A program made the translations under genes and the position numbers. Below the pieces are notes generated by a model. The model saw only the letters and a program-made list of their open reading frames with translations, was not told where the DNA came from and ran no database searches. DNA of 64,000 nt from a virus (Duplodnaviria; Caudoviricetes): the IMG/VR virus record IMGVR_UViG_3300031998_000004; one strand, given 5' to 3'. The first letter of the stretch is position 1. Each line of letters starts with the position of its first letter. Of this stretch, positions 4,934 to 64,000 are shown piece after piece.

Positions 4934-5962
4934 TTAGAATTGTTCCGGTTCAAAAAGCACTACCCAACCGTCCTTGGTCTGGCATTTCTTTACCATATCC
5001 ACCAGTTCATCAATAGGCGTGTCTTTAAAGAGTTTCATATTGTTCATACGAATGAATCTTGCTTGCCTCATAATAGCTCCGTTGTTATTGGGTTTAACAA
5101 ACGTCATCCTTACATTATTACTTCTCATAGTAACAGTTTCAATATTCTTAAATCCACTCAAATCAAGAAGATCACTGAGTTTTCCTTCTGGAATGACTTC
5201 TGTAGGAATAAGAGAACCATACTTACGTATGTTATTAACTATAGCAACAATGTTACGAGTGCTCTTGGTTTTAGTTATTCCAGCAGCGATTACAGTCCCT
5301 TTACCAAAGAACTTATCAAGTTTACTTTTAATTCCGTCACAATTAAAAAAACTACAATCATATATACTTATGGTTTTTGCATTTGATTTGATATATTTAA
5401 GATTTGGAAAGTCTGTAACACTTACAAGAGATAACACCGGATAAACATTTCCTTCGAAATTAAATTCAGCATCAAAGTAATCTAAATCGGAAGCCCATCC
5501 AATTTTGACCATACCAGTCATTCTGCATTTGTTCGGATTTATATTAAATTTGAATCCTTCCAACTTCTCACACATACCATCAATTGTTACACCAGTGCAA
5601 TTAATCTCTTTGAATCCACCACCATTAGCAATAGGATCTGGATGTGGGCCATTGAATCTTGGACTTCCTATATGGAAGTTATTACAGTATAGAGTATATC
5701 TGTTCAAAAAAGGATTATCAGACGAGTCAATACCAACATTAGCGTCAAGATGAATTTTCTCTTTATCTATATCTATCTCTTTCGCGAGACCATCCAATCC
5801 CCATGTGATAACATCAGTGTCTCCTGCGTTGTATACCTTCATATACTTCCACCAATCACTATCCATGTCATTAAACATGTTCTTTTCAATTTCGTGAGTA
5901 TCTGAGATGTTCTTGTCTACATTAAATAGACCTTCGTATATGTATTGTGATAATGATTTCAT
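4934..5962 (-). CDS. hypothetical protein with MKSL..YE-GLFN leader (putative internal head protein)
   Basis: N-terminus MKSLSQYIYEGLFNVD. Confidence 0.6.
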   Translation of the reverse strand: MKSLSQYIYEGLFNVDKNISDTHEIEKNMFNDMDSDWWKYMKVYNAGDTDVITWGLDGLAKEIDIDKEKIHLDANVGIDSSDNPFLNRYTLYCNNFHIGSPRFNGPHPDPIANGGGFKEINCTGVTIDGMCEKLEGFKFNINPNKCRMTGMVKIGWASDLDYFDAEFNFEGNVYPVLSLVSVTDFPNLKYIKSNAKTISIYDCSFFNCDGIKSKLDKFFGKGTVIAAGITKTKSTRNIVAIVNNIRKYGSLIPTEVIPEGKLSDLLDLSGFKNIETVTMRSNNVRMTFVKPNNNGAIMRQARFIRMNNMKLFKDTPIDELVDMVKKCQTKDGWVVLFEPEQF

Positions 5963-6567
5963 GAATCTTTAATAAGTTTTTTCATTATAGCTTGATCTAT
6001 AGCTACACCAGGAACATGTTTATTTATATTTATAAATTTATCAAATTCACTTTGAATAAGATTCACATACTTTTCGGATGTTATGTTGTCTATCATTGAC
6101 TTCATAAGTTTTATGATAGACCGAACTGTGTCTGTTGTACATTCAAAATGCAAATCAAAGCTTTGTCTATCAAAACGCTTATCACTATAACCTTCCACAA
6201 AATTGAAGTGTTTGGGATCTTTCTTAGTCAACCAACGTCTAACTGCATTTCCATCAGAGAAATTCAAATCCCAAGCACCGTATTGGTGATTAAACACCAA
6301 TTGTGGACACTGAGGATACCCACACAGTCCATTATTAAACTGTAATTTCACAATAACTTTAAGATCTAATTTCTCTGTGCCGTAAAACGCCTTATATACT
6401 TTTAATCCATCATTATTCAAATCCATCAACCATCCTCTGTCTATACATTTATTGCGCAACTTACAATAAGCATCCTTAAAAATCATATCCCAAAAAACCT
6501 CTGGTTCTACGGGAGATGACTTTCCCATCAGGTCTTTATCAAATAAACTTTCATAAAGTGATTTCAT
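5959..6567 (-). CDS. hypothetical protein with MKSLYE-SLFD leader (putative internal head protein)
   Basis: N-terminus MKSLYESLFDKDL; preceded by the ATTATTTA motif. Confidence 0.6.
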   Translation of the reverse strand: MKSLYESLFDKDLMGKSSPVEPEVFWDMIFKDAYCKLRNKCIDRGWLMDLNNDGLKVYKAFYGTEKLDLKVIVKLQFNNGLCGYPQCPQLVFNHQYGAWDLNFSDGNAVRRWLTKKDPKHFNFVEGYSDKRFDRQSFDLHFECTTDTVRSIIKLMKSMIDNITSEKYVNLIQSEFDKFININKHVPGVAIDQAIMKKLIKDS

Positions 6568-6570
6568 ATA

Positions 6571-6613
6571 TAAATAATAGATTTCCGTGATACTATAGTA
6601 TCATATAAATAAT
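6571..6613 (-). promoter_or_regulatory. Two putative late-promoter motifs (ATTATTTA) flanking a 16-bp perfect palindrome
   Basis: TAAATAAT on + at 6571-6578 and 6606-6613; TGATACTATAGTATCA at 6588-6603. Confidence 0.4.
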
Positions 6614-6615
6614 AA

Positions 6616-7173
6616 TTATTTACTACTCACCATCACTAGCGGAATAAACCAATGAACAGTCATATCAACAACAGTACAACTATCTGAATGAAATTTAATA
6701 TGTAAGTATCCAATATTGTCTGGAGACGGATCATATCCACGTTGACCTATTTTATGTCGGAGTACATACCCCTTGTATACATTAGAGAAGTATTCGGAAA
6801 GATTATTGTTAAATGATATAAAGAGTGGATCAGACTCAATCTCTAACTTGGATGACGATGGAAGATACCCGCGGAGAACATCGGCTATCTGAGTAGGGAT
6901 AGATTTAGTACAGTTTGTATTAACTTGAAGGTTCCCATAATTTTCATTAAACCTCTCAACCACATCTTTCACATCATCATACCATAGACATGATGTCTCA
7001 AAATTAGACTTCAACACATCCACTATAGGTTCCTCATTTAGAGTTGTTTTCTTTGCCTCCAGAAACCAAATACTACTATCACCGAAGACAAATAACATAT
7101 CATCATTGATAGGTTGAAGGAGGTATTTTAACTGTATTCCTTCTATATTTTGTGTAGAATCAAACAAACTCAT
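6616..7173 (-). CDS. hypothetical protein starting MSLFD
   Basis: 185-aa ORF carrying the leaderless version of the SLFD tag. Confidence 0.6.
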   Translation of the reverse strand: MSLFDSTQNIEGIQLKYLLQPINDDMLFVFGDSSIWFLEAKKTTLNEEPIVDVLKSNFETSCLWYDDVKDVVERFNENYGNLQVNTNCTKSIPTQIADVLRGYLPSSSKLEIESDPLFISFNNNLSEYFSNVYKGYVLRHKIGQRGYDPSPDNIGYLHIKFHSDSCTVVDMTVHWFIPLVMVSSK

Positions 7174-7248
7174 GTATAAAAATATTAGTTTTGTTTGAAA
7201 AATTTGTGTTTTGTTAATATTTTTTAATAGTAAATAAATGCATTTATA

Positions 7249-8304: not shown

Positions 8305-8647
8305 TCACGAAGATCCCTTTAGATTATCTCCGGCATATTTTGAATATGACGTATTTGCATTATTCAAGATAAATATAGTTGGGTTGATTCAAATCAAAGC
8401 ATCACTTGCAAAAAACTTCCATATACAACCATCGGAAATAGATAATATGCCGATGTGGGAATATGAGATGTTTATTGATGAATTAAATAAGCAAGTCAAG
8501 GATGAGAATAAACGCCAGCAAGAAGAGATGGATAAATATCATGTAAATGATTACATGAAAAATATGAAAAATATGAATCCTTCTAATATGGCGAAGATGT
8601 CTCAACCAAAACTACCGGATCTTTCGAAAGGATTTAAAATGAAATGA
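8291..8647 (+). CDS. Baseplate hub assembly chaperone, T4 gp51-like (start uncertain: TTG at 8291 or frameshift)
   Basis: LAKNFHIQPSEIDNMPMWEYEMFIDEL matches the gp51 pattern (EIxxMxxWExxxY/F); no ATG upstream of the conserved core. Confidence 0.65.
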   Translation: MDPDNHEDPFRLSPAYFEYDVFALFKINIVGLIQIKASLAKNFHIQPSEIDNMPMWEYEMFIDELNKQVKDENKRQQEEMDKYHVNDYMKNMKNMNPSNMAKMSQPKLPDLSKGFKMK

Positions 8648-8648
8648 T

Positions 8649-8675
8649 AAAGGAACTCACAAGAGTTCCTTTTTT
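8649..8675 (+). terminator. Rho-independent terminator
   Basis: AAAGGAACTC-ACAA-GAGTTCCTTTTTT. Confidence 0.8.
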
Positions 8676-9523: not shown

Positions 9524-9553
9524 AAAGGAACTCAAACGAGTTCCTTTCTTTTT
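9522..9553. terminator. Bidirectional terminator between convergent genes
   Basis: AAAAAGGAACTC-AAAC-GAGTTCCTTTCTTTTT. Confidence 0.75.
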
Positions 9554-10014
9554 AATGTTATCTCTATCCTCTGTGGTATGAATGTGTTGACGTGAATAAT
9601 TATAAAGGTGTATGATTTATCTCGAAGTTTAACATTAACCGTCACATCCCCACCTTCTCGAATCTTCGTTTGTTTGAGACAAGAAGTAAATGTTTTTGAT
9701 AAGTTTTCTTCATTAAGAGACGGCACTACAAGACACATAAGGATGATATACTTGTAGATGTCATTAAGATTATAGATAGATCTTTGATTTAGAACATTAT
9801 TTATCTCGTCAAAATCTTTTTGAGATATCTTCATCGATCCATCATCGTTACATAGTAATCCCCGAAGAGTATCAACTATCTTTGTTTTAGAGAAGTTGAT
9901 TTTGAAGGCATCTCGCCAAGAGATATGTTTATGATTTGGATTGGTACAGTCCCAGAACTTGTACACCATCCCCACCCATGGGTCTTCGATTATATTTTCA
10001 GAGAACAAACTCAT
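9532..10014 (-). CDS. hypothetical protein starting MSLFS
   Basis: 160-aa ORF with an SLF tag. Confidence 0.55.
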   Translation of the reverse strand: MSLFSENIIEDPWVGMVYKFWDCTNPNHKHISWRDAFKINFSKTKIVDTLRGLLCNDDGSMKISQKDFDEINNVLNQRSIYNLNDIYKYIILMCLVVPSLNEENLSKTFTSCLKQTKIREGGDVTVNVKLRDKSYTFIIIHVNTFIPQRIEITLKRKELV

Positions 10015-10225: not shown

Positions 10226-10648
10226 TTAGAAATAGATTCCCCTCTCAATCTGTAGTCTCTCCAGGGAGTCACTACTGTGTATCCCATTTCTCATCTCGCT
10301 CTCACCAATTTCCTTCCGGATATGATCTTTGATCTTATCTGTCTCGGCAAACATCTTTGAAGACATCGATCCGTCTTTGACAAATAAGATAGCAGTGCTG
10401 GGGGCACTAGACATATACTTACATAGGTCCTTAAAGAAATCCTCTTTTTTATGTGGTTCGTAGAGTCGTTTGGCTTCCTCAGGGAGGAGTTGTTTAGTTC
10501 TTATCCGATCAACACGCCATCCTCGTTTAGCAAATTCATCTATGACGAAAGCCGTGTCTTCAAGGAATCCGGGTTTCACAATAACAAATATATTCTGTCT
10601 ATTGTCATCAACAAGTGATGGTCCAAGTGATTCGATTAATGATTTCAT
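10226..10648 (-). CDS. ndk: Nucleoside diphosphate kinase with MKSLIE-SL leader
   Basis: FVIVKP, YEPHKKEDFFKDL..YMSS.P, RNGIHSSDS (catalytic His), ERGIYF. Confidence 0.88.
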   Translation of the reverse strand: MKSLIESLGPSLVDDNRQNIFVIVKPGFLEDTAFVIDEFAKRGWRVDRIRTKQLLPEEAKRLYEPHKKEDFFKDLCKYMSSAPSTAILFVKDGSMSSKMFAETDKIKDHIRKEIGESEMRNGIHSSDSLERLQIERGIYF

Positions 10649-14487: not shown

Positions 14488-15966
14488 TTACTTTATACTT
14501 CTCCATGCACGGAACTGTGCGCGGATTGCACGCTCGCGTTCGTCAGCAATCTGTTCAAGGCCTTCGTAGATGTTCTTCACCTGAGGAACTACATTGAAAT
14601 CGATTGACTCCCAGAATCTCTGAATAGCACCTTCGTTATTGAAGTTATAGAGTTTTGCGCGTCTGTTGATTGATTCCTTCATTTCATCACTTGCGGACTC
14701 ATAAAGAGGACGTACTGCCTCGGGCATCTCCTGGATGAACTTAGGAGCGTCTTCGTTAACTGACTTTGCTGATTTAAAGATAGGTTTGCTCACTTCAATT
14801 CCTTCAAGAAGTTTGAGTGTATCTTCAATTGAAGAAAGACTGTTCTTCTTGGACTCGGTAACTGCATTAGCGATCTGTTCCTCTACCTTAGGTGCATAGT
14901 GCTCATTGAGCCATGCCTGTGATGCAGGAGCGTACTCTTCAACGATCCAGCTCTGGATACCCTGAGCGAACTCTGTGGTTGCCCAACGCTCAACCTCACC
15001 ACCGAACTCTTCAACGACCCATGTCTGGATCTTAGGTGCGGCTTCGTTAAGGAGATAGTCTTTGAATGCATCCATTGCTTCATCAACCATTTCTCCCTTA
15101 TACTCAGGAGCAAACTCTTCGGTGACCCAACCAGCAATCTTAGGAGCGAACTCATTGACACACCAGTTCTGGATTCCTTCACATAATTGTTCTAAATCAA
15201 ATTTAGGAGCCTTCTCGAGGGCCTCGTTAAGTTTCTTATTTTCATCCTCGAGGGTCTGTACTCTTTCCTCGAGTTTTTCTAACTTTTCAAGTTTCTCGAG
15301 AATCTCATTCATTTCCATATTGTTTTCTTCGGGTTTATTTTCTATATTTGTTTCTTGTTCTTTTTCTGTTACGTAGAAGATGTTTGATTCGGGGATCTGT
15401 GTATAGACATCATCACCGACCTCAGCACGACCCTCAGCACTCATCTTGTTCTCAAAATCAACCATCTGACTCTCGTTAAGGTGAAGTCTTGCCTGAGAAA
15501 AACCAGGAGTCCCCACAAGGTCATATGTAGATATTCTTTCAAGAGTGACTGCACCAGTCTTAGGATCTACATTACCCATAGCGCGGCTAGAGATAAACAA
15601 TGGAAGTCCACCTTCAACGATTGACTGAGCAATCTTTCCCTTAGGAGTATTGAGAAGTGTGATTGTGCCACTCACTACACCATTCTCGTCAATATTAATA
15701 TCAGTAATTTTGTGTGAGATGTTTTCAAGTGTGATGTTCATATACTGAGGATGCTCGAGCTCGCCAGGGATTCCACCATCCTGTCTGATTCTCCCTTGCA
15801 TCTCTTCAACCATCTTCTTATAGTTAGAAGTCTCGTATACACGGGAATTATTATTGCGTACACCACAAACACCGAATGTACCACTCAATGTCATCAAACC
15901 ATTTTCTTTAGAAATGGTCATTGACTTGGCGTCATTTAAGGTTTCATAAATGTAACTTTGTTTCAT
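14488..15966 (-). CDS. Prohead protease (T4 gp21-like) fused to a scaffold-like C-terminal region
   Basis: N.N.RVY, GELEHP, TPKGKI, ISSRAMG and YDLVGTPGF motifs; then coiled coil and repeated IQxWxxEEF/Y units. Confidence 0.88.
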   Translation of the reverse strand: MKQSYIYETLNDAKSMTISKENGLMTLSGTFGVCGVRNNNSRVYETSNYKKMVEEMQGRIRQDGGIPGELEHPQYMNITLENISHKITDINIDENGVVSGTITLLNTPKGKIAQSIVEGGLPLFISSRAMGNVDPKTGAVTLERISTYDLVGTPGFSQARLHLNESQMVDFENKMSAEGRAEVGDDVYTQIPESNIFYVTEKEQETNIENKPEENNMEMNEILEKLEKLEKLEERVQTLEDENKKLNEALEKAPKFDLEQLCEGIQNWCVNEFAPKIAGWVTEEFAPEYKGEMVDEAMDAFKDYLLNEAAPKIQTWVVEEFGGEVERWATTEFAQGIQSWIVEEYAPASQAWLNEHYAPKVEEQIANAVTESKKNSLSSIEDTLKLLEGIEVSKPIFKSAKSVNEDAPKFIQEMPEAVRPLYESASDEMKESINRRAKLYNFNNEGAIQRFWESIDFNVVPQVKNIYEGLEQIADERERAIRAQFRAWRSIK

Positions 15967-16032: not shown

Positions 16033-17343
16033 TTATTCGAAAATTGTCTTCATATAACTAATTAAATCAACAAACGATTCGTTTTTTGGCGGTTCCCCAT
16101 TAATCCATTCTTTGGACCAGCTGCCATCTTTTGGTTTAACCTTATAATACTTGCCACCTCGGGGTCCCGTCATCTTTTTATATTGTTTACCGTCAGATCC
16201 TGTTTCTGTCTTAACAAGAAATGAATCTTCATCTTTACCAGCGGCTTTTGCTGCTTGTTTGAGTTTATCTTCTAGTTCCTTAATTTTATCTTTATCCTTT
16301 TCATCATCAAGTTCACCAATCTCATTTTGGATTTTTTCAATATCTTCGTTTGAAAGTTTATTTGTTTCAGTTTTTTCTTCTTTATTATCTTTTATAATTC
16401 TTTCAAGTTCATCATCTATTTCTTTAATTTTCTTATCATATTCTTCTTGAGATTGTTTCAATTGTTTGTCTTTTTCTTCTTCACCAATTTCTTTTTTACT
16501 AGCTTTATCATTTATTTCTTTATCGCGTTTTTCTTTTTCATTCAATGCATTTTCTTTATCTTCATTGGCTTTATCAGTCGCATTAGCAATGTTAACAATT
16601 TTTTTAATATCATTTACTATACTATCAGGGGCCCCTGATGCCTTATAAAAATTAACAATTGGTGAATCGTTTGGATTTTCTTTATGTGCTTTGGCTATAT
16701 CTTTGTGTATTTGAATGGCTGATTTTTTATTATCTTCTTTTTGTTTTTCAATTTCTTTTGAAGTGATTTTACTAAAATCCAATTGATCCTTAAAAGAACT
16801 GTTTTGTTCTTTTGAAAGATTTTTAGCGATTTTGTCAAAGTCATTTTTAAATATTTCGGATACGTCATTTCCGCCATTCATTTCTTCGGCAAATTTTTTC
16901 CTATCCTCTGGAGATCTTAAATTACCATTTTCGTCATATAAACAAGCATTTGTCTGATTTAATAACATTTTTGCATGATCAACCTCAGGGCCTTCTTTTC
17001 CTTCCATCATCTTCTTCATCAAAACCTGTGTTTTGACTATTTCATCTACTTGTTTGTCCTCCGATAGTTCACTAATCGGTTTAACTTCTTTAACTTCTTT
17101 TCCATCATCTTTTTTTGAACTTTTTGAACCACCAAATAAAGAAGCAGTATCCCCGAGATCATCTCTTTTATCACCAAGCTTGTCTTTTATATCATCATCC
17201 CATTCTTTTCTTTTGTTTTTACTAAACCAACCAAATAATCTAGCGATCCCGCTAAAAAGACCAACCGTTAAAATGGGTAATAAAAACATTTCATTGACTG
17301 TTGCTTGTTGATGTTGATCTATTAAGTATTCTTTAAGATCCAT
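16033..17343 (-). CDS. Charged coiled-coil putative head/internal protein
   Basis: MDLKEYL...VNE leader, hydrophobic segment, K/E/D-rich body, TGPRGGKYY motif. Confidence 0.5.
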   Translation of the reverse strand: MDLKEYLIDQHQQATVNEMFLLPILTVGLFSGIARLFGWFSKNKRKEWDDDIKDKLGDKRDDLGDTASLFGGSKSSKKDDGKEVKEVKPISELSEDKQVDEIVKTQVLMKKMMEGKEGPEVDHAKMLLNQTNACLYDENGNLRSPEDRKKFAEEMNGGNDVSEIFKNDFDKIAKNLSKEQNSSFKDQLDFSKITSKEIEKQKEDNKKSAIQIHKDIAKAHKENPNDSPIVNFYKASGAPDSIVNDIKKIVNIANATDKANEDKENALNEKEKRDKEINDKASKKEIGEEEKDKQLKQSQEEYDKKIKEIDDELERIIKDNKEEKTETNKLSNEDIEKIQNEIGELDDEKDKDKIKELEDKLKQAAKAAGKDEDSFLVKTETGSDGKQYKKMTGPRGGKYYKVKPKDGSWSKEWINGEPPKNESFVDLISYMKTIFE

Positions 17344-17353: not shown

Positions 17354-17914
17354 TTAATTTACTTGTAAAATCTTTTCTCTTAAAATATTATACACTTTAT
17401 TGGGTTCTTTAATATAAGAACTTAGTGTATTATAAGGAGTTAACTTATTAAAGGTTTTAATGTCTCCATCAAGTAGGGCCTGACGTACTCGAGTAGCAGA
17501 GATGTCTTCATTGGTTCTCTTAATTTCAATCATTTGGAAGTCATCTGAAAGGCCTGCTTCGTCTTTATATTTGGTAGACATTTTTGTATATGAGTCAATC
17601 CGATCGGTTCCACACGACCAGGACACTATCTCGTATTTATTCTCAAGAGCTTTTCCAATTTTAACAATATCCGCATTATCAACTATAACAATATCATTGA
17701 TATTCTTAAATGTAGATTTTAAGTCATTATATATAGGTGCAAGTACAGATGTGGGGAAAGGGTGTCTTTTATCAACTTTATTATCCGGGGTGTCAACGAG
17801 ACATATAACAGTACCCACACCAAGTTTCTTCCAAGCCTCGTCAATACACTTCATATGACCATCGGTCAATGGTTGGAACCTTCCTATTATGATATTCGTT
17901 CTGATTTTATCCAT
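17354..17914 (-). CDS. HxGH-superfamily nucleotidyltransferase (cytidylyltransferase-like)
   Basis: GRFQPLTDGH, HPF, GTDR and ISATRVR motifs. Confidence 0.8.
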   Translation of the reverse strand: MDKIRTNIIIGRFQPLTDGHMKCIDEAWKKLGVGTVICLVDTPDNKVDKRHPFPTSVLAPIYNDLKSTFKNINDIVIVDNADIVKIGKALENKYEIVSWSCGTDRIDSYTKMSTKYKDEAGLSDDFQMIEIKRTNEDISATRVRQALLDGDIKTFNKLTPYNTLSSYIKEPNKVYNILREKILQVN

Positions 17915-23557: not shown

Positions 23558-24130
23558 ATGAGCATATTTAATACATCACCCACACAAGGACTCAAGGTAA
23601 GAGAAATATATGAGATAGACGCAAAAGAATCTCGAGCATTGGTTTCTCAAACAACCACATCGGTATTATATAATTACTTCGAACCAACATATGAAAGAGC
23701 ATTTAATTTGTGCTGGGTGACAAACGCTGGATATCATTTCTGGGGTGAATACAAAAATCAACATTGGGAAGGACTTGGATATAATGAATTTCTGAGTAAA
23801 GCTTTGAGAGCATTCGGTGAGTGTGAGATTGGAGGACTATCTAACCTCAATTCTCAACTTGAGTCTCTCTGTGACGAACCGGTGTTCCGAGTTGATATAA
23901 TACATGATTTTATGAAGTCTACATCGTCGGGACAAATAATAAATTATCCAATGAAGGGATCGAAGAAGCACCCCATCATACTCACCTTCCCTTGGATAGA
24001 TAGTAATCTTGTTGAACGACACCCATGGGCAATACTTTACGTGTATAACAACCAAAAAGAAACGATACACGTTGCTGCAGTTCCACTCATTCCAAAAAAG
24101 GGCATGGAGGATGTGTTTAACGCGCTATAA
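23558..24130 (+). CDS. hypothetical protein starting MSIFN
   Basis: 190-aa ORF preceded by ATATTTAT. Confidence 0.6.
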   Translation: MSIFNTSPTQGLKVREIYEIDAKESRALVSQTTTSVLYNYFEPTYERAFNLCWVTNAGYHFWGEYKNQHWEGLGYNEFLSKALRAFGECEIGGLSNLNSQLESLCDEPVFRVDIIHDFMKSTSSGQIINYPMKGSKKHPIILTFPWIDSNLVERHPWAILYVYNNQKETIHVAAVPLIPKKGMEDVFNAL

Positions 24131-24207: not shown

Positions 24208-24981
24208 TTAGTCTCCTACGTACTCACCACTCCGTTTGCTAGCATAGTATCCTGCTATTCCTCGGCTGGTTGCTTCGTGACTGCTTGCGAAGTTCTGTAA
24301 TCTCTTGTCTGTCTGTAAATAAGAAAGAAAATCTTTAAGTTTCTTTTTATCGTACTTTGCAATGAGTCTTATCGTGAAACTCGGAACCGGAACACCAGCA
24401 CCTCTTCCCTCGTACTCAACCACCTCACATCCGGTTCCCGACATACAATCCCAAAGTTTACGACGAAGTACTGTCATGTCTTCTGCAGGGAGGTTATTGT
24501 ATCCGTTGCCGTATTGAGAATCCTTAAAGTACACCCCTATCATACTAGGAGAGACAGTGTAGTTATAGTTATCTTCACGGAACTGTTTTGCAGTACCGGT
24601 TGTAAGCTTGAGTTTGGTTGTTCCAACTCGCACAGCACCACCAAGGCCGGATTCCTTATCACATCCACTTATCCACTCCCCATTGACCCCGATCCTACTG
24701 AGTTCAGCAAGGACTGCTTCGAGTAACTTATTGTCATTCTTTTCGATGTACAACACCATTTCTATCATAGAAGAACAAACAATATTTCTTCTCTTGGGGT
24801 TGTCTTTGAACCAGTCATCGACCATTTTTAAGATGTTCTCTTTAGCGACCCCGTTGGCGAGTTCGGACATAATACTTTCCAGTTTACTATCACCAACCGA
24901 TAGAGGGGCTGATTTAAGATCGTACTCAGGGACAATCACTTTGACTTCCCGAGGATTGACATATTCGTATAATGGTCTCAT
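24208..24981 (-). CDS. hypothetical protein with MRPLYE leader
   Basis: 257-aa ORF ending YVGD. Confidence 0.6.
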   Translation of the reverse strand: MRPLYEYVNPREVKVIVPEYDLKSAPLSVGDSKLESIMSELANGVAKENILKMVDDWFKDNPKRRNIVCSSMIEMVLYIEKNDNKLLEAVLAELSRIGVNGEWISGCDKESGLGGAVRVGTTKLKLTTGTAKQFREDNYNYTVSPSMIGVYFKDSQYGNGYNNLPAEDMTVLRRKLWDCMSGTGCEVVEYEGRGAGVPVPSFTIRLIAKYDKKKLKDFLSYLQTDKRLQNFASSHEATSRGIAGYYASKRSGEYVGD

Positions 24982-25011: not shown

Positions 25012-26655
25012 TTAGAATCCAAAATTCTTTAATTTTTTATCTGCAGTCTCTATAGCATCTTTAAGTCTCTTTGTTGCGCCTTCGAGATTTCTGTAATCAT
25101 AATCCTCTGGTTTTGTTTTATAACTATTTCCAAAGCATGATAAGTAGGCATCCATAAAACATTTGAAAATATACATCAATCCGTTATCTCCATAGTATGC
25201 GGGGCCACTATCGTGTTTCCATGATTTATAGCTGGGATTACTCCTCTTTTCATCTCTTAACCATGTAAAGAATCTTTCAACATCATACTTATTAAATGCT
25301 TTGGGGTCTTTGGTAATAGCACGAGTGAATTTGAATACTCTTGTATTGATTTGTTCGTATTCATCAATGACCTTATCGTATCCTTCAGCTTCGTCATTCT
25401 TTTTTCTCTCAAGACGGATTTGAGCAACCATGTCCTTATATCTCTTCATGTTTGCAGCAGCAATAGCTTTATACTGTTCGACATCACCAGGATTAATAAC
25501 ACCAGCTTGAGCATCCGCCCTATTTTTTCTGATATTCCAACGCTCGTCGTTACCAGTACCGGTGTCCTTACCAGTATTTAATACTACAACAGTATAGCCA
25601 CTTCCGTAATTAAGAATCCGGTCGCGAGCTTCAGACTTACCATAGTAGCGTGTATCTATCTTATTTGAATAACTTCCCTTATGGGGAATATTTACCCAAA
25701 CAATCGACCAACCACTTCCACGAAGTTTAGCCTGTTCACCAAATCCACCAATAAACTCACCAAGGTCTTCGTTATAAACCAAGAATATATCGCCACCATC
25801 AGCGTCTCCGGAACTGTATGCGCTATAGAATGCCTTACCAAGAGTCTTTTTATCTTTCTCATCACTCATGTCATAAACATCAATATCATCATTAGTGATT
25901 TTGTCAAGAAGTCTTCCCGAGCCCGAGAAACCACTGGATCTAGAGTGATTTCTGATTAAGTTATCTAATTTATTATACTTCTGTTTGGAATCATCTTCCC
26001 ATGACCATTCCTTATAAGGGTACTTCTTAAGCTGTGCAGCAAGACGTTGCAACCACTGATTGTTAAGTGTTTCATTTACAACACCTTCAACCACATCAGC
26101 CTCGATTTCGTCCTCTCCACAGAAGACTTTCTTTATAACATGGACCTTTTCTTTCAACTGGTCTACTGTATACTTCTTTCCGTTTCCGCTCCAATATATA
26201 TTACCAAACACAGTATCTATCCCTTTACAATCCTTCAACTTCTTACAGTTAGTTACAGAGAGGTCTCCTTTTATGAGTTCGGGAATACCAACAAGGGAAA
26301 CGAGAGCCGGACATTGATTGATAGTGAGACTCCCATCGAATATAGCGAATTTCTCAAGGAAAGAACCTTCAAATCCTGTGAGTTTTGGACAGTTCTCAAT
26401 AATCAACTTACCATGGAAGTCTTTAATATTGATATTAAGAGTTTCTGATTGTACCCCACTTATAATCAACTTTCCATTAACTCTACAGCTACCATCTTTG
26501 AAGAACACAGTATTAAAGGAACCCTTACATGTATCCAAGAACATCTTTGTTGTGTCCTTTGCAATTCCTTTCTCGAGTCTATCTCCGCCTTCAAAATCAA
26601 ACATCCCTTCGGCAAGAGCTACTATATTTCGCGATATTTCTTTTAACGATCTCAT
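25012..26655 (-). CDS. Two-domain protein with MRSLKE...AE-GMFD leader and LRR-like repeats
   Basis: L.I.NCPKL, L.I.QCPAL.SL.G.P and L.V.NCKKL repeats; internal VVNE linker. Confidence 0.6.
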   Translation of the reverse strand: MRSLKEISRNIVALAEGMFDFEGGDRLEKGIAKDTTKMFLDTCKGSFNTVFFKDGSCRVNGKLIISGVQSETLNINIKDFHGKLIIENCPKLTGFEGSFLEKFAIFDGSLTINQCPALVSLVGIPELIKGDLSVTNCKKLKDCKGIDTVFGNIYWSGNGKKYTVDQLKEKVHVIKKVFCGEDEIEADVVEGVVNETLNNQWLQRLAAQLKKYPYKEWSWEDDSKQKYNKLDNLIRNHSRSSGFSGSGRLLDKITNDDIDVYDMSDEKDKKTLGKAFYSAYSSGDADGGDIFLVYNEDLGEFIGGFGEQAKLRGSGWSIVWVNIPHKGSYSNKIDTRYYGKSEARDRILNYGSGYTVVVLNTGKDTGTGNDERWNIRKNRADAQAGVINPGDVEQYKAIAAANMKRYKDMVAQIRLERKKNDEAEGYDKVIDEYEQINTRVFKFTRAITKDPKAFNKYDVERFFTWLRDEKRSNPSYKSWKHDSGPAYYGDNGLMYIFKCFMDAYLSCFGNSYKTKPEDYDYRNLEGATKRLKDAIETADKKLKNFGF

Positions 26656-50405: not shown

Positions 50406-50708
50406 TTACTTCGGGAAATATTGTTTATATTCGAGTTTCATATGTCCGTAGACCTTATCGGAAAACTCCTTTCTCCACTCACTATCTCCTATCTTATCAA
50501 AGAATCTCTGGCTGTAATCAATATAACTCTCTACCATAGCATAGAACCTGCTATTGTGTAAAGCTTCTGTTGCTTCCTCTATACTATCAAATACTGATCT
50601 ACCATTATCACTTACAAAGAGTTTGTCATCAATAAATACCCTCCAAATGGTTGGAGTCCAATAACTTGTTGTGTTGCCATCTCTGGCCTGTTTCATGTTA
50701 AATTCCAT
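50406..50708 (-). CDS. hypothetical protein
   Basis: 100-aa ORF. Confidence 0.55.
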   Translation of the reverse strand: MEFNMKQARDGNTTSYWTPTIWRVFIDDKLFVSDNGRSVFDSIEEATEALHNSRFYAMVESYIDYSQRFFDKIGDSEWRKEFSDKVYGHMKLEYKQYFPK

Positions 50709-50720
50709 GATATTATATAT

Positions 50721-51116
50721 TTAAGATTCATCTAATGTTAATCCTTTCTCTTCCATCTTCTCCACAAGGAGATAAAATAGATTGTAATCAATTCGGTTGA
50801 TATGAGCGCAGCTACCACACGTCTCACAGATATCACGACAGGTGAGTTCGTTCTCGGGTTTTCCAAGAGCTTCCGAGATTGCTTCCTTACCATATGCTAT
50901 ATGGTCTCCTTCACTATCTAGACAGAGTCCGTCTAGGTGTCTCCAAAAATTCCTACTACACCCACATCGCTGACTCTCAATAAGTACATCCCAGAACTGA
51001 GCTATCGTCTTGATACCCAACTTCTTACACATCTCAAGAAGGGTCTTCTTACATGTCTTATAAGAAGGACCTTTCTCAATATTACTTTTTATTACTTCTG
51101 TGAGATTGATATCCAT
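50721..51116 (-). CDS. Cys-rich hypothetical protein
   Basis: CGC, CRDICETCGSC. Confidence 0.55.
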   Translation of the reverse strand: MDINLTEVIKSNIEKGPSYKTCKKTLLEMCKKLGIKTIAQFWDVLIESQRCGCSRNFWRHLDGLCLDSEGDHIAYGKEAISEALGKPENELTCRDICETCGSCAHINRIDYNLFYLLVEKMEEKGLTLDES

Positions 51117-51151
51117 GATATTATATATTGAAACCTACAGGGTTTATTAAG

Positions 51152-51775
51152 CTACCATCTCTCTGCGAGAATTTTCTCTAGTTCTTTTCCTTCTTTTTTA
51201 GCGTACTGGTCTTCAATGTTTTCGTATTCATCTCGTTCGAATTCATTGTACATATTGGTTGCCTTTTCAACCCGAGGTTTTCTTGGTTCCTCTACATATC
51301 CAATAGCATTCTTACCATCGCCCCACCTAAACTGCAACCATCCTTCGTATTCTCCGTCATCCCATTTATAATCCTCAGGTATCTCGTCGGGACCACGAAA
51401 GAGCATGTCTTTGAGGATTAATTTATTGGTGCGGTTATCGTAGTTATAAAGTTTTTCCTCGCCCCACACCCAGGTCATGGTTTCACGATCTGCAAGCAGC
51501 CATCCCCAAGCCCTTTGTGTGGGTGTTTCAAAGACGTAGTTGGAGTCATAGTGCTTCTCCATCCACTTGAAGTGATCACGACGAGGAGCTTTATCAAAAG
51601 TACCACAGTATTCCTCGAAGAGCTCAATATGTGTTCGAGCTTCATCAGCGGTATCAAACTCTACCCTTTCTTCGTCACATACAACACTGTTTCTGGTCGG
51701 ATCCTTATAGTTCCAACCATAAATCTTATCTGCTTTCCTACCCCAGATGTTAGTTATTAGTATGTATCTTTTCAT
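51152..51775 (-). CDS. hypothetical protein
   Basis: 207-aa Trp-rich ORF. Confidence 0.6.
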   Translation of the reverse strand: MKRYILITNIWGRKADKIYGWNYKDPTRNSVVCDEERVEFDTADEARTHIELFEEYCGTFDKAPRRDHFKWMEKHYDSNYVFETPTQRAWGWLLADRETMTWVWGEEKLYNYDNRTNKLILKDMLFRGPDEIPEDYKWDDGEYEGWLQFRWGDGKNAIGYVEEPRKPRVEKATNMYNEFERDEYENIEDQYAKKEGKELEKILAERW

Positions 51776-55977: not shown

Positions 55978-56781
55978 TTAAACGCATTTCTTGTCGTTCC
56001 AAATCCTGATATGGATTCGGTCGGAATATGACCATCCGTTGGCGAGTGCTGCTTCTGCTGTCTCAAGACACCTACCGGCTATCTGTTCCTGTGTAACTCC
56101 TTCAGGCATCAACCAAGTGTTTTTGTTGGGATTGTTTCTCTGCCAATATTTAATTTCGTTGGTATCACCAAGATTAACAAATTTAGATATTTTGGAGTAT
56201 ATATCCTGTATCTCATCAATACACTCAGGACCACTATAGACAAACTTAAACTGATAAGGAACGCCGCTTGTAATTACATTAAAGAGGTTCTTATAATTGA
56301 TTCTCAATTCATCATGTCTCTTTGCTTGTTCTTCTGTAAGGAATTTATGTGCTGTGTCCACACTGGTTGCGAGTTTTGGAGATACACTATAAAGAGAAAT
56401 CTTAAACCCTTTTGTCAGTGGACCAAAAACAGGGAATGTTCCGTTTGTCTCAATAGTTACGATCCAATCATTTTTAATCTGGAATATATCGGTCAAAAAA
56501 TCCTTTAATCCCTCTCTCTGTAGAAACGGCTCACCACCAGTAATAACAATATGTGTGGTGCGGGGATGTTCTTTTGAAATCTTTATAAAAGCATCAATCA
56601 AGTCTTGCTCGTTTGAGTAAATTGGTTTCTCTGGGTGGAAAGAACTGTACGCGGTATCACAAATAGAATCCTTAAATACACATCTAAGATTACAGCCTGT
56701 GGTTCTTACGAAGATTGAAGGTACTCCCATGTACCTTCCTTCACCCTGAATTGAATGAAATAACTCTATGATATTCAACAT
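55978..56781 (-). CDS. queE: 7-carboxy-7-deazaguanine synthase (radical SAM)
   Basis: E.F.SIQGEG...G.PS.FVR..GCNLRC...CDT, ITGGEP, IETNG, SVSPK, R.H..IW. Confidence 0.9.
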   Translation of the reverse strand: MLNIIELFHSIQGEGRYMGVPSIFVRTTGCNLRCVFKDSICDTAYSSFHPEKPIYSNEQDLIDAFIKISKEHPRTTHIVITGGEPFLQREGLKDFLTDIFQIKNDWIVTIETNGTFPVFGPLTKGFKISLYSVSPKLATSVDTAHKFLTEEQAKRHDELRINYKNLFNVITSGVPYQFKFVYSGPECIDEIQDIYSKISKFVNLGDTNEIKYWQRNNPNKNTWLMPEGVTQEQIAGRCLETAEAALANGWSYSDRIHIRIWNDKKCV

Positions 56782-56782
56782 A

Positions 56783-57376
56783 TTACTTAAGTTTAATTTG
56801 CTGTTTAACGGAAGGATTAGTAATGTATTTGCCAGTACTAATAAAATCCCTCAATGTCTGCGACCAATCTCTCTTAACTCCCTCCGAGAATACTATTTCG
56901 TCTTCCCACTGGTCTAACCAGTTAATATCTTCATCAAACTGATCACACCTGGCCATACCAGTGACCGTCTCGTTATACTCTACTCCGATACAACGAATTG
57001 CACCCTCACCATTCTCAAACTGAGTATTGTCAAGAATCCTATTAATGTAATGCATGATGAAGATACTTAACATCTCTGCACTAGGGTTAAATGGAATAAG
57101 GATGTACCTGTCGTTGAACTTTTTGAAGAACTCAACATACTCAGGATCGTCCTTTGTACAAATCAGGGCGCAGTGGTCCATAGAATCTATCCAAGAGCCA
57201 ATAGTATTTTTCATTAATCCAAAGTCCATCAACATCTGTGCATTATCAAGCTGACGACCTTCAAAGAACACATCAATCACGGCACTATGACCATGATGTG
57301 AATGAGAACAGCGATAAGAACTACATGATCTAACAATATGAGAACTTTCACAACGGTAACGTTTTCTGATTATCAT
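56783..57376 (-). CDS. queD: 6-carboxy-5,6,7,8-tetrahydropterin synthase
   Basis: H.V...C...HGHS, MDFG.MK, DH, NPSAE, ET motifs. Confidence 0.88.
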   Translation of the reverse strand: MIIRKRYRCESSHIVRSCSSYRCSHSHHGHSAVIDVFFEGRQLDNAQMLMDFGLMKNTIGSWIDSMDHCALICTKDDPEYVEFFKKFNDRYILIPFNPSAEMLSIFIMHYINRILDNTQFENGEGAIRCIGVEYNETVTGMARCDQFDEDINWLDQWEDEIVFSEGVKRDWSQTLRDFISTGKYITNPSVKQQIKLK

Positions 57377-57714: not shown

Positions 57715-58152
57715 ATGAGTATATTTGATAATGACATAATAGAAAGACCCCTCCACGTAAGAGACGGATTTGACATTCGTATAGAGGAGTTTAATCGTCA
57801 TTGTTTTTATACATGGGTGTGGGAAAAGAAGGGAATTCATTGTTCTGGCGGTCATCCTGTTGGTGTTACATTACAGACCCTAACGGATGCCGTAACAGAC
57901 ACTTTGGGTGACCTCTCTGTGGATAACTTTGAAAAATGGATCACTGAAGCTCAGATTGGAGGACCCAAAATTGGAGCCGCAAAACACGCCATAAAATACT
58001 TCAAGAAACTCATTAAGAGAGAATATTGGAGGAGTCTGGGAGCCTTTGTAGAAAACGGAATCTTTGAATTTTACGTACGCGATGATGCGTTTGATGCCTG
58101 GGCTCTCCGGAGCGCTCTCCCTATTATGAGAATAATATTTTACAGAAAGTAA
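57715..58152 (+). CDS. hypothetical protein starting MSIFD
   Basis: ATG at 57715 preceded by TTATTTAT. Confidence 0.6.
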   Translation: MSIFDNDIIERPLHVRDGFDIRIEEFNRHCFYTWVWEKKGIHCSGGHPVGVTLQTLTDAVTDTLGDLSVDNFEKWITEAQIGGPKIGAAKHAIKYFKKLIKREYWRSLGAFVENGIFEFYVRDDAFDAWALRSALPIMRIIFYRK

Positions 58153-58583
58153 TGGGAATATTTGATGTAAAAGAAAATATCAAACGAGAGTTTACTGTTG
58201 GAGACGTGTATGATGTGGATGTGGTAGATCTCGGAATGTCAGGAACCCTCGATGATAACGCTCGTCTGGTTTTCAAAGGATATAGTCTTGATGAAGTGCT
58301 AGGCGAGATGAAACAAACCAAACTCAAGACATTTGAAAGGTTCTTTAAGAAACCCACTTGGATATGGATAAGTGATTTTAAGTTCATTACCCTAACAGGT
58401 TGGAGACTAAAACGGTGGCTAGGGAAGTGGGTGAAAAAGAGATATATCACTGATCCGGATAATCTTCGTACCGACGTTCTCGGTGCTATTAAAGGAGTAT
58501 ATGTGTATAACGGTGAGATTATAGAATGGGCCACCGAGGCTTGTTTTTGGTTTAGGTTTTGTAAAAAAGAAGCCGATTTCTAA
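58152..58583 (+). CDS. hypothetical protein starting MGIFD
   Basis: TAATG-coupled to the upstream gene. Confidence 0.6.
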   Translation: MGIFDVKENIKREFTVGDVYDVDVVDLGMSGTLDDNARLVFKGYSLDEVLGEMKQTKLKTFERFFKKPTWIWISDFKFITLTGWRLKRWLGKWVKKRYITDPDNLRTDVLGAIKGVYVYNGEIIEWATEACFWFRFCKKEADF

Positions 58584-60574: not shown

Positions 60575-60607
60575 TTCGAAATATTTTATTTATAAACAAA
60601 TAATCAT

Positions 60608-60639
60608 AAAAAAAGACCCTCTCTGAAAGAGAAGGTCTT
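60608..60639 (-). terminator. Rho-independent terminator
   Basis: AAGACC.TCTC..GAGA.GGTCTT with an A-tract on +. Confidence 0.65.
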
Positions 60640-60665
60640 GTGTAGTGGAATGGTAGATACTATCT

Positions 60666-61919
60666 TTATTCAGCATCTGCGAGTTTTGCAGCGAGCTCAC
60701 TAAGGATTGCGAGCTTGGCGGGATCGTTCTTGAACTTCTCAGTCAAAGCAGCGATTCTCTCTTTGTAACCATTCTTTTCGTTTAACTTTGCTTCTTCCTC
60801 AAGTCTCTTCTTCTCTTCCTCATCAACATTTGCCATGTGAGCCTGAACAGCTTCGGTATAAACCTGACCGAGTTCTACATTGGTCTTTGATTTGATGAAT
60901 GAAAGTGTTGAGACAGCGTTCTCGTTAACCGTCCATTTCATGTTGTGATTTGACTGAAGGAGTGTTGCATAGAGGTCGGTACCACTCTCGATAACAACGA
61001 ACCTATCCCGGTTGGTTGTGTAGATAGCGGTATTGTCGAGATTTGCAATGCTCTTGTAGTTCTCAAAGGTAAGAGCGAGTGCTTCAAGCGCACTAGCGAT
61101 ACTACGATTAACACTACCAGCAACTACAAGATTGTTGTGCTCACGGAGTTCAGCGGGAGTCTCAAAGACATTCTCGATTCCGTTGATTCCAACGCGCTTG
61201 CAAGTGATCTTCTCGTCGGCTTCGCTGATTGTGTACTCACCGTTACCGATCTTTGCAGTAAGTGTGCCCTGATCAAAGGTTACCATGTTGCTCTCAAGGA
61301 GTGAAGAGACAGTCTTGAAGGTGTTTGAAACTTCATTCCATCCAGCTTCCTGGATCTTCTTGCTCTCGTCAATCTTATATACTGTACCAGCAACCTCAAA
61401 GAGGAATCCATCACCAGCATTTTCAATAAGAGAAATTGGATGAACTGCTGTGTAGTCGGCTGTTGACTCAACGATTGGAGTATCAGCGTAAACCTGTTTT
61501 GCGATATTTCTGAATGCTTCGCAGAACATAACATTCTTCAATGCACCAGCTTTGATGTACTTAACAACGGTCTCTTCGTCGGCTTCAAGAAGGTTCTCTA
61601 CCTGCTTTGCAGCATTACGGTTGAGGTAGTTGTAAGAAGCACCATTACCATTAATACTCTCACATGCGGTTGCAAGTGCCCAGCTTGTCTTGTTGCTTGA
61701 AATATAATCGGAGACCTGTTCGAGAACAGCGTTAACTCCGTTATCAAAGCGCATTGTTGCAGCTTCCTTAACAAACTGATTTACAAGTCCGCAAGTAGCA
61801 TTATTAGCCATCAAGAATGACTTGTATTTGTTTAACATATCGTTACCACTCTGAGTCTGACCGGCCGACTCATTCAAAATAGAAGCAAATTCTAATCCGG
61901 CTAATATCTTAACGTTCAT
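60666..61919 (-). CDS. putative prohead core/scaffold or abundant head protein
   Basis: Codon usage like the protease gene; many (L/I/V)xE|S/A sites (ILNE-S, LLE-A, IVE-S, LLE-S). Confidence 0.45.
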   Translation of the reverse strand: MNVKILAGLEFASILNESAGQTQSGNDMLNKYKSFLMANNATCGLVNQFVKEAATMRFDNGVNAVLEQVSDYISSNKTSWALATACESINGNGASYNYLNRNAAKQVENLLEADEETVVKYIKAGALKNVMFCEAFRNIAKQVYADTPIVESTADYTAVHPISLIENAGDGFLFEVAGTVYKIDESKKIQEAGWNEVSNTFKTVSSLLESNMVTFDQGTLTAKIGNGEYTISEADEKITCKRVGINGIENVFETPAELREHNNLVVAGSVNRSIASALEALALTFENYKSIANLDNTAIYTTNRDRFVVIESGTDLYATLLQSNHNMKWTVNENAVSTLSFIKSKTNVELGQVYTEAVQAHMANVDEEEKKRLEEEAKLNEKNGYKERIAALTEKFKNDPAKLAILSELAAKLADAE

Positions 61920-61956
61920 ATTTATTTGGTATGTTTATTTATCTAATAATAAATGT

Positions 61957-62562
61957 CTATATATCTTTTATTGACAAATCTGTCAGAAGCGTCCATATAC
62001 CATTTATGTATTTGTTAACATCAGAACGAGCAACTATACTAATTTCTATTTTATCAGTATCTAGTCCTTTCCAATTTTTATTTCCCACTTTTATGTCTTT
62101 ATGTCTCAAAGTTTCCGGGTCTAAACTATTGTCGATATATGATATATACACTTCTATTTTAGACCTTACCGGAGTATTTCCCCACTTGGTTCCTTCAGGC
62201 CATATAATTCCCGCTTCTTCCAATATATCGTTTAATGCTGTTGTATCTAACTCAGAGTCATTCGCGAGTTTCTGATGGTCTTTAAGTGTACTCGGTATTA
62301 CAATAGTGTTTTTGAGAATAATCGCAATAAACTTTTGAAGGTCCGGTGGGAATGTGGTTTTGGAAAAATTCTTATTAAATGTCGGAGACCCATCTAATAC
62401 CCACTTCTTCTTCACAGCACCTTGTGCAAAGTAATGAGTCCACCCTCCATCACGCGAATCTTTGAACTTCTTTATATGTCCACCAAATAACGCATATAAA
62501 GAAGTTATATCATCTTCTGCTAGATTCTTATCAAACAAACTTTCTCTTAAACTTTTCATCAA
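61957..62562 (-). CDS. hypothetical protein with MKSLRE-SLFD leader
   Basis: N-terminus MKSLRESLFDKNL. Confidence 0.6.
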   Translation of the reverse strand: MMKSLRESLFDKNLAEDDITSLYALFGGHIKKFKDSRDGGWTHYFAQGAVKKKWVLDGSPTFNKNFSKTTFPPDLQKFIAIILKNTIVIPSTLKDHQKLANDSELDTTALNDILEEAGIIWPEGTKWGNTPVRSKIEVYISYIDNSLDPETLRHKDIKVGNKNWKGLDTDKIEISIVARSDVNKYINGIWTLLTDLSIKDI

Positions 62563-63122
62563 CCGACTCTTAATTTCTCAAACTCCCATCTCATAAACCA
62601 ATCAGGAAGTCTTTTAAGTGATTTGCACCCATTAAACATACCATTACCCGTATCGACTACCCTTCTTACATTCCATTTAGAAAGATCGGAGTTGAATGTT
62701 TTGCAATTATAAAACATAAAATTCATAAATTCAACCCTTCTTACGTTCCATTTAGAAAGATCGGCGTTGAATGCTTCACAATTATAAAACATGCAGTTTG
62801 TATCTTGTACTTTACTTACATTCCATTTAGAAAGATCGGAGTTGAATGTTTTGCAATTATAAAACATATACCCCATATCTTCAACCTTACTTACATCCCA
62901 TTTAGATATATCTATATTTTTTATTATATTTGAAAGATGCGCAAACAAATAAGACATATCTGTTATCTTACTAATATCTATAATATTGAGATTAGCATCC
63001 GGTCCTTGAATTTTTAATTGCTCTTCTATACAATTAATTAATTCACCCTTTGTTTCAGGATGATATAATATATCATTCTTAACTATATCTTTATCAAAAA
63101 GGCTTTCTACTAGTGTCTTCAT
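62559..63122 (-). CDS. DUF285/BspA-repeat protein with MKTLVE-SLFD leader
   Basis: 25-aa repeats FN.DLSKWNVS.V.DM..MFYNC. Confidence 0.8.
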   Translation of the reverse strand: MKTLVESLFDKDIVKNDILYHPETKGELINCIEEQLKIQGPDANLNIIDISKITDMSYLFAHLSNIIKNIDISKWDVSKVEDMGYMFYNCKTFNSDLSKWNVSKVQDTNCMFYNCEAFNADLSKWNVRRVEFMNFMFYNCKTFNSDLSKWNVRRVVDTGNGMFNGCKSLKRLPDWFMRWEFEKLRVG

Positions 63123-63676
63123 TAATCATCTTTTAATTTTTCAAACTCCCATCTTAAAAGATCGGTGTTTCCATAAGGACCATAAGTCAGGCAAACTGCA
63201 ATAGTCCACTTTGAAGTAATTATATCAAAATGAAATTTCGTATTTCCGTTTATGCCTCTCTTCTCACCCTTCCATTCCGGTAGTATGTATTGGTCTAGTT
63301 TCTGGCACATCTCATCACGGAATCTACTATTAAACTCTCCAAACCTACACTCCTCAAGAAACGGGATACACATAAGAAGTCTTGCGAAGAGTTCGGTTTT
63401 CTTAGTTGACTGTACTGTTCTGATATTAGTATTACTCGCGTTAGCATAAGCATACATTCCCAAGTCTATCTTCTGACCACCAAACTCCTTTACATCTTTC
63501 ACCACTTTCTTCCAATCAATCACCCCAAGGGCATTATCTTGTTTTGGTATAGGGAATCCTGGAGCTAATCTCAATACCCACTGACCATCAAAGAACGCTA
63601 TGTCTTTGATTTGATGTACCGGTACTTTCTTTTGTACTAGGTCTGTATCAAATAGGCTTTCAACTAATGACTTCAT
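63122..63676 (-). CDS. hypothetical protein with MKSLVE-SLFD leader
   Basis: N-terminus MKSLVESLFDTDL. Confidence 0.6.
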   Translation of the reverse strand: MKSLVESLFDTDLVQKKVPVHQIKDIAFFDGQWVLRLAPGFPIPKQDNALGVIDWKKVVKDVKEFGGQKIDLGMYAYANASNTNIRTVQSTKKTELFARLLMCIPFLEECRFGEFNSRFRDEMCQKLDQYILPEWKGEKRGINGNTKFHFDIITSKWTIAVCLTYGPYGNTDLLRWEFEKLKDD

Positions 63677-64000
63677 ATCTCTTCAAATGCAATTGTACAT
63701 TGGATATCTTTTCTCCAAAAACTAAACGTAATAATATTTTCTTTTAATCCATTTGGTTCCCCAAAATAATAATTCCCTCCGCGACCAAGCATGTTATCTC
63801 CTTTCAAATTTTTGAAATATTGAGAAAGTATATTATATGCTTCTTTTATAAAACCACCAATATAAGGAAATCGATTACTTTCTTCTTTAGTACATATATA
63901 TGGTATGTTATTTATTGCCGCAATAAAATAACCTATATCATCACAAAATTTTTTTCCTGCGACTCGAGCATCGAATCGTTTTGTCATCTCATGATCAAAA
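63673..64000 (-). CDS. hypothetical protein, 5'-truncated (likely another SLFD-leader member)
   Basis: The frame stays open to the window edge and reads ...FDHEMTKRF. Confidence 0.55.
   Translation of the reverse strand, partial: FDHEMTKRFDARVAGKKFCDDIGYFIAAINNIPYICTKEESNRFPYIGGFIKEAYNILSQYFKNLKGDNMLGRGGNYYFGEPNGLKENIITFSFWRKDIQCTIAFEEI

Follow-up and report, generated by a model that had tools for sequence, protein, structure and literature searches.

Why do many unrelated proteins of one phage begin with nearly the same few residues? The question was raised by a 64,000-nucleotide stretch of IMG/VR virus record IMGVR_UViG_3300031998_000004 (Duplodnaviria; Caudoviricetes), the whole of which is called the window below. 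The 64-kb window belongs to a large T4-like myovirus and has a G+C content of ~36%. An earlier note, made from the letters alone, had described a portable N-terminal tag of the type MKSLxE|SLFD (the bar marks the presumed cut) and proposed that it loads diverse cargo into the capsid. Comparison with related phages and with T4 makes it probable that this peptide is an expanded, two-part form of the T4-type capsid-targeting and prohead-protease signal, in which a leader is followed by an acidic box.

A shared N-terminal peptide on unrelated proteins

The tag is carried by 13 complete genes of ~78 in the window (about one in six). The DNA pattern for M-K-[S/T]-L-x-E has six matches where 0.19 are expected from shuffles, five of them at gene starts, and the pattern for E-S-L-F-D has four where 0.49 are expected. 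At the protein level, E[SGA][LIM][LFI][DN] occurs at 2.56 per 1,000 residues in the first 30 residues and at 0.06 inside proteins, a difference of ~40-fold. Chance is excluded as the source of the tag. All eight N-termini quoted in the earlier note were found in place, every one of them at the earliest start codon in the frame, and its description of the proteins as unrelated was borne out. In an all-against-all BLASTP of the tagged proteins, similarity was confined to the first 8–38 residues, so these proteins do not form a paralogous family. Between copies of the tag, Ser is coded by AGY or TCN and Leu by TTR or CTN, so selection acts on the peptide and not on the DNA. No tag is present on those window genes recognized as coding for replication, tail, or baseplate proteins.

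Five IMG/VR relatives (G001 to G005), four of them fully fetched, were used for comparison. Their prohead proteases share 84% (G001), 54% (G002 and G003), and 49% (G004 and G005) identity with that of the window, and G005 is a complete genome of 197.5 kb with terminal repeats. Matches to the pattern M-K-[S/T]-[L/F]-x-E numbered 16 in G005, 10 in G004, and 9 in G001, compared to 0–1 in a reversed control. With a broader definition of the tag, 17 of 83, 21 of 171, 18 of 160, and 27 of 256 genes were tagged in four relatives (10%–20%). The tag is retained in relatives with a protease only 49% identical, in dispersed genes and on both strands. A search with residues 1–40 of one tagged protein returned ten proteins (eight clear orthologues and two weak matches), too few to gauge how far the tag has spread. 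Homologs in G001 were identified for 8 of the 13 tagged genes, at 26%–62% identity, and for 32 of 52 untagged genes, at a median of 60%. Tagged genes, which are arranged in tandem arrays, turn over faster than neighboring genes, as T4 Ip loci do.

The tag has two parts, a leader that ends in hydrophobic-x-Glu and an acidic box, S/G-L/I/M-F-D/N. Leaders in the window have 6 (M-K/R-x-L-x-E), 10 (MKSLxxYIxE), or 16 residues, and the 10-residue form was found in 46 genes across the five genomes. Every leader-bearing member ends in L/I/V/Y-x-E, which matches by sequence the (L/I)-x-Glu rule of gp21, the T4 prohead protease. In the window and in G001 the acidic box is ESLFDKDLV; G002 has ESLFDSEDDLLDK, and G004 and G005 have ESILDDEED. 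Across clades the box is more conserved than the leader. Five window proteins have no leader and open directly at the box (MSLFD, MSLFS, MSIFN, MSIFD, and MGIFD); each relative has one to five such starts. Several of these leaderless members have a hydrophobic-x-Glu at residues 8–10 (MSIFDNDIIE, MSLFSENIIE). The earlier description of a cleaved tag of about ten residues is incomplete, as the best-conserved part lies after the presumed cut and five members begin without a leader; this second part may be the one that docks. The list of tagged proteins in that note is real, with these five missing from it. In G001, the tag is doubled in tandem in three proteins (L046:3190–3822, L048:10381–10638, and L049:6458–7024), which read MKSLxESLFDSKTQ(M)TESLFD(N/K)DL.

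The leader-bearing members of the window lie on the minus strand. The 342-residue protein at 4934–5962 has the leader MKSLSQYIYE followed by GLFN (MKHLSQYIIE-GLFD in the G001 orthologue), and the overlapping gene at 5959–6567 codes for 202 residues that start MKSLYE and continue SLFDKDL. Neither belongs to a known family, and the second has no homolog in the relatives. A nucleoside diphosphate kinase (NDK; 10226–10648, 140 residues) and a 547-residue protein (25012–26655) are described below with the cargo. The 257-residue protein at 24208–24981 is a weak member, with MRPLYE and no acidic box after it; its G001 orthologue begins MRTLFE-SI. The leaderless members are found at 6616–7173 (minus strand, 185 residues, MSLFD, with a weak G001 homolog that also begins MSLFD), 9532–10014 (minus strand, 160 residues, MSLFSENIIE; MSIFDTNLVE in the G001 orthologue), 23558–24130 (plus strand, 190 residues, MSIFN), 57715–58152 (plus strand, 145 residues, MSIFDNDIIE), and 58152–58583 (plus strand, 143 residues, MGIFD).

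A tandem array on the minus strand holds the genes at 61957–62559 (200 residues, MKSLRE-SLFDKNL), 62559–63122 (187 residues, MKTLVE-SLFDKDI), and 63122–63676 (184 residues, MKSLVE-SLFDTDL, with a G001 homolog of 52% identity that has the same tag). Stop and start codons of the array genes overlap. The next array gene (63673–64000, minus strand) is cut by the window end with its start outside; its frame begins ..FDHE, as had been reported, and an in-frame ATG follows directly, so that it counts as a candidate member. Two array genes at 62559–63676 (minus strand) and a G001 gene at 50631–51212 have in common a C-terminal (L)RWEFEKL just before the tag of the next gene. This conserved junction of gene end and following gene start may act as a recombination arm.

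Prohead protease and T4 signals

The gp21-like protease named in the earlier note is encoded at 14488–15966 on the minus strand and has 492 residues. It matches phrog_207 (3e-44), and its gp21-type domain (residues 1–165) is above the cut-offs of both Peptidase_S77 (PF03420, 31.2 bits compared to 27) and S80 (29.5 compared to 23.4). An hhalign alignment to T4 gp21 (E 4.6e-5, 108 columns) places GELEHP (H72) on GELNHP (H85) and ISSRA (S126) on VSSRG (S140); His85 and Ser140 are reported in the gp21 structure paper to be the catalytic residues of T4 gp21. The rest of the protein (residues 166–492) is scaffold-like, with a coiled coil and W..EEFAP.IQ.W repeats. In this tail, [LIV]-x-E occurs 22 times (6.7 per 100 residues, compared to 1.84 for window proteins overall), and the sites include the tag-like PLYE|SA and NIYE|GL. 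An invariant LHLNE|S comes directly after the protease domain. The homolog in Tenacibaculum phage PTm1 is annotated as a ‘prohead core scaffolding protein and protease’.

Genes for a gp23-type capsid protein were identified in G002, G004, and G005, and for a gp20-type portal in G002 and G005. Judged from these genes and the protease, the head-assembly core of this phage group is of the T4 type. Near their N-termini, the capsid proteins of the relatives have an IISE|SL site plus MFE|AV or VYE|GL. In a BLASTP comparison of the G005 capsid protein to T4 gp23, only the C-terminal part aligned, and the predicted maturation site was not placed against T4 Glu65. A complex prediction for the protease-scaffold and residues 1–60 of the 5959–6567 protein returned a score of 0.00, which is no answer and is neutral either way.

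T4 provides the closest known system. Its internal proteins (IPs) and Alt have propeptides of 10–20 residues that direct them to the core of the prohead and that gp21 then removes (PMC5694885). The capsid-targeting sequence of IPI, IPII, and IPIII was described by Mullaney and Black 1996 (as cited in PMC5694885; also PMC3012670 and PMC12373910). T-even phages carry polymorphic Ip gene arrays with only the leader in common, and Ip1–3 all block GmrSD restriction enzymes (PMC12373910, PMC3012670). In the T4 record (NC_000866), ipII and ipIII start MKTYQEFIAE. We built a matrix from 42 distinct ten-residue leaders of uncultured phages and used it to score the N-termini of 265 T4 frames. The top three were gp61.1, IPII, and IPIII, more than 7 bits above the fourth, which bears out a likeness in sequence to the T4 capsid-targeting sequence. 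IPI, which has a 19-residue leader, ranked 13. By our own estimate, the odds of two of the three IPs falling in the top three by chance are ~3 in 10,000. The best match, gp61.1 (gene 61.1, NC_000866 18966–19130), is an unstudied 54-residue protein that starts MKTFKEFIKE, and it may be an overlooked head-targeted protein.

Other T4 head proteins have similar features. Alt starts MELITE|LFDED, as does its duplicated fragment Alt.-1, and gp67 starts MEGLIE|A. A matrix for the acidic box, scored on the whole T4 proteome, had its best match at TIVE|NMLDDETD in the prohead core protein gp68.

The peptide of the window resembles the T4 capsid-targeting sequence in being a short N-terminal leader on small, fast-changing, and otherwise unrelated proteins encoded in arrays. 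Both have an M-K-S/T start, hydrophobic residues at positions 4 and 7–8, a Glu at position 10, and an end that conforms to the gp21 (L/I)-x-E rule. They differ in number: T4 encodes three of these proteins and the T-even phages ~ten together, whereas there are 13 in the window and 10%–20% of genes in the relatives. Leaders here have 6, 10, or 16 residues, some members have none, and the presumed cut is followed by an acidic box that is conserved. The cargo, unlike that of T4, includes an enzyme (NDK) and repeat proteins, and the host is probably in the Bacteroidota. Packaging is predicted here. The kind of system is one known from T4; what is new is its scale, the division into two parts with a conserved box behind the cut, the existence of leaderless members, the enzyme and repeat cargo, and the host group. 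A limited search of the literature found no paper that joins the capsid-targeting sequence to uncultured or giant metagenome phages.

The layout of MKSLYE|SLFDKD, a 6-residue leader followed by hydrophobic-F-D-acidic, is also that of T4 Alt, and gp67 and gp68 have a leader-type start and a box-type motif, respectively. The residue after the cut (P1') is Leu or Asn in Alt and gp68 but Ser or Gly here, and the gp68 motif is internal. No function is described for the LFDED stretch of Alt in the T4 literature cited here. Phage P1 loads its Dar anti-restriction proteins into the capsid and delivers them with the DNA, as is proposed for the tagged proteins; loading in P1 follows a hierarchy of partner proteins (Hdf, DarA), and P1 is not known to use a shared cleavable N-terminal tag or a gp21-type system. 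The prohead protease of phiKZ, 201phi2-1, and SPN3US belongs to the same superfamily and processes many inner-head proteins by cutting after x-x-Glu, and the propeptides are thought to target the prohead and may have several cut sites each (PMC5694885, PMC7411985). Those propeptides, however, are mostly longer than 100 residues with no single shared portable tag, and the cleavage motif is S/A/G-x-E, compared to L/I-x-E here (PMC5694885, PMC7411985).

Cargo and neighboring genes

Most tagged proteins have no recognizable function: ~80 of 93 have no Pfam family match, and Pfam and PHROGs together name only ~12 of the 93. A protein atlas search with tagged cargo gave no result. The NDK assignment of the earlier note holds for 10226–10648, and a BspA-type DUF285 domain is confirmed at 62559–63122 (E 6e-37). 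The NDK (minus strand) matches PF00334 with an E value of 8e-19 (68.3 bits, cut-off 27), residues 20–140 aligning to profile positions 3–130, and is preceded by a 19-residue N-terminal extension that begins MKSLIE-SL. Its translation includes a C-terminal N-G-I-H-S-S-D, which we take to be the active-site His motif of NDK. Each of the four fully fetched relatives has an orthologue at this position, with a leader of this type in three of them. Tagged cargo in the relatives includes MATCAP-like peptidases and an AAA_5 ATPase near a DUF2201 metallopeptidase/VWA protein.

The 547-residue protein at 25012–26655 (minus strand) begins with a 16-residue leader, MRSLKE...ALAE, followed by GMFD, and has 41 homologs in public data. 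A junction of the form [LI]-x-E|[GS]-hydrophobic-F-D is present in 35 of 36 full-length orthologues, after leaders of 9, 10, 15, or 16 residues. The AlphaFold2 model has a mean predicted local distance difference test score (pLDDT) of 82. Residues 1–22 are below 50 and the fold starts at about residue 23, so the tag is modeled as a floppy extension outside the fold. A leucine-rich-repeat domain at residues ~35–180 is followed by a middle part of no assigned kind and a C-terminal helical bundle. The repeat domain aligned to many leucine-rich-repeat proteins in VIA-align (Z 9.0–10.4, root-mean-square deviation 2.6–4.0, 117–133 aligned residues). The Foldseek comparison suggested in that note returned nothing significant for this protein, only weak papain-like hints with a probability of at most 0.28.

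Directly downstream of the main tag array is a gene for a 417-residue protein (60666–61919, minus strand) that is present in all relatives at 54%–87% identity. Its AlphaFold2 model has a pLDDT of 92, with no match among solved folds and no family match. There are ~154 relatives in public data, and those in BFVD include proteins of Tenacibaculum phages PTm1 and pT24, the one from pT24 being joined to a ‘DNA ligase 1’. The gene is covered by contigs from RNA libraries, with the highest depth there, though contig depth cannot rank genes. We considered this protein as a scaffold that binds the tag, as it is rich in [LIV]-x-E, and dropped the idea because it has no known fold or family and its pT24 relative is fused to DNA ligase.

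A 436-residue frame (16033–17343, minus strand) adjoins the protease and has no homolog in the four fully fetched relatives. Its product begins MDLKEYLIDQ, which narrowly misses the leader of the G002 type, MKNIKEYINE. The T4 late-promoter word TATAAATA occurs at 17 sites, with no clear association with tagged genes.

A megablast of 20 kb of the window against 50,697 phage records found no DNA-level match to deposited phages, and a search of IMG/VR with an exact 42-mer had no hit. Window DNA was found in bovine gut metagenomes from six studies, and the host is probably a Bacteroidota bacterium of the cattle gut. One window protein is also encoded on a 240-kb contig, which indicates a jumbo phage. 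Recognizable genes include a DNA ligase, a DNA polymerase, baseplate proteins, a head-fibre-like protein, and the prohead protease. The DNA polymerase is in two frames of 303 and 657 residues (37709–38620 and 39853–41826, minus strand), with a 376-residue frame between them (38633–39763, minus strand). G001 shows the same kind of split, and the polymerase is a single gene of 905–981 residues in G002, G004, and G005. The arrangement resembles either a mobile-element insertion or a divided gene 43 of the sort known from some T4-like phages. An RNA ligase (PF09414; 53327–54163), a phosphoribosyltransferase (PF00156; 54369–54962), and a cytidylyl/nicotinamide-nucleotide adenylyltransferase-like gene (17354–17914), all on the minus strand, form an auxiliary nucleotide/NAD-type set typical of gut jumbo phages. 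A radical-SAM gene (PF04055) adjoins a 6-pyruvoyl-tetrahydropterin-synthase-like gene (PF01242) at 55978–57376 (minus strand). Their pairing is that of QueE and QueD in the 7-deazaguanine pathway and hints at modified DNA bases, which, if present, would suit a phage that needs injected anti-restriction proteins.

Explanations for the shared start

If the peptide is a capsid-targeting signal, the tagged proteins would be synthesized with a leader at the N-terminus (M-K/R-x-L-x-E or MKSLxxYIxE) and, behind it, an amphipathic acidic box (S/G-L/I-F/L-D plus D/E), and the tag would dock them to the scaffolding core while the prohead grows. The gp21-type protease (14488–15966) would then cleave hydrophobic-x-Glu sites behind the Glu, just as it would process the capsid protein and the scaffold, and the trimmed proteins would remain in the head and exit with the DNA. 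Docking, cutting, retention in the head, injection, and the role of the cargo are steps that we infer, and an anti-defense role of the cargo is suggested by analogy only. Several observations weigh against this explanation. The window has no capsid protein gene, and capsid and portal were seen only in relatives. PTm1, the nearest cultured relative, has no M-K-[S/T]-L-x-E start. Because the relative of the adjoining 60666–61919 protein in pT24 is fused to DNA ligase, a late head-gene context for the array would be an assumption. The best-conserved part of the tag sits after the presumed cut, unlike in the T4 IP signal, and for the five leaderless window proteins cutting would be unneeded or would occur elsewhere. 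Tagging of 10%–20% of genes, NDK included, is far beyond any documented set of capsid cargo.

The conservation of the box and the leaderless proteins could instead mean that the working element is the S-L/I-F/L-D box, serving as a free-N-terminus docking handle that is read by another phage or host machine and not by the capsid core. The box would be exposed either by removal of the start Met (the MSLFD type) or by cutting of the leader, which would be one of two routes. Methionine aminopeptidase removes the start Met before Ser or Gly; where this happens, both routes would give an identical mature N-terminus. It also fits that the box exceeds the leader in conservation across clades and that direct box starts are found in five window proteins and one to five times per relative. 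The box is, however, also found in T4 Alt and in prohead core gp68, which points back to the head, and no candidate reader was identified. Leaderless members with hydrophobic-x-Glu at residues 8–10 may, moreover, carry another form of 10-residue leader. We regard a handle independent of the capsid core as unlikely.

Two further explanations give the peptide no role in sorting. The shared start could be a signal for expression or stability, such as an initiation region that works without Shine-Dalgarno pairing or a half-life signal. Lys is the commonest second residue in all of these genomes, and regions upstream of genes are AT-rich with no obvious ribosome-binding site, both of which agree with such a signal; but synonymous variation in the tag is free, so that the RNA sequence is not kept, and neither the Glu at position 6 or 10 nor the S-L-F-D box has a known role in initiation. 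The absence of the tag from replication, tail, and baseplate genes and its resemblance to T4 sorting signals also speak against an expression signal, which we consider very improbable. We give still less credence to the idea that the shared ends are footprints of cassette shuffling, in which gene starts and ends serve as recombination arms and the peptide itself is functionless. Tandem arrays with overlapping stop and start codons, the C-terminal RWEFEKL common to two array genes, and the tandemly doubled tags of G001 would all be expected from shuffling. Within the tag, though, DNA identity is low while peptide identity is high, and the tag survives in relatives with 49% protease identity, in dispersed genes on both strands.

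The two-part capsid-targeting signal leaves room for a related idea about the box. Tentatively, and with more doubt than confidence, we suggest that S/G-L/I-F/L-D-(D/E) is a second, separate address, a docking handle at a free N-terminus that has gone unnoticed even in T4 (LFDED of Alt, MLDDE of gp68). If so, the box would be exposed when the Met is removed in the cytoplasm or when the prohead protease acts within the head, and dozens of unrelated proteins could be directed to a single reader along two routes and at two different times, either freshly made or delivered by the capsid. The match of the box to Alt and gp68 makes the question testable in T4.

The internal proteins of T4 are well-studied, ready-made injected proteins, and all three block restriction enzymes (PMC12373910). 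If the tag is an expanded signal of this type, uncultured T4-like giant gut phages would carry dozens of injected proteins each, not three. The tag would then mark a large and easily recognized catalogue of candidate counter-defense and host-takeover factors, and it would provide a short peptide of natural origin with which foreign proteins could be loaded into phage heads in Bacteroidota systems.

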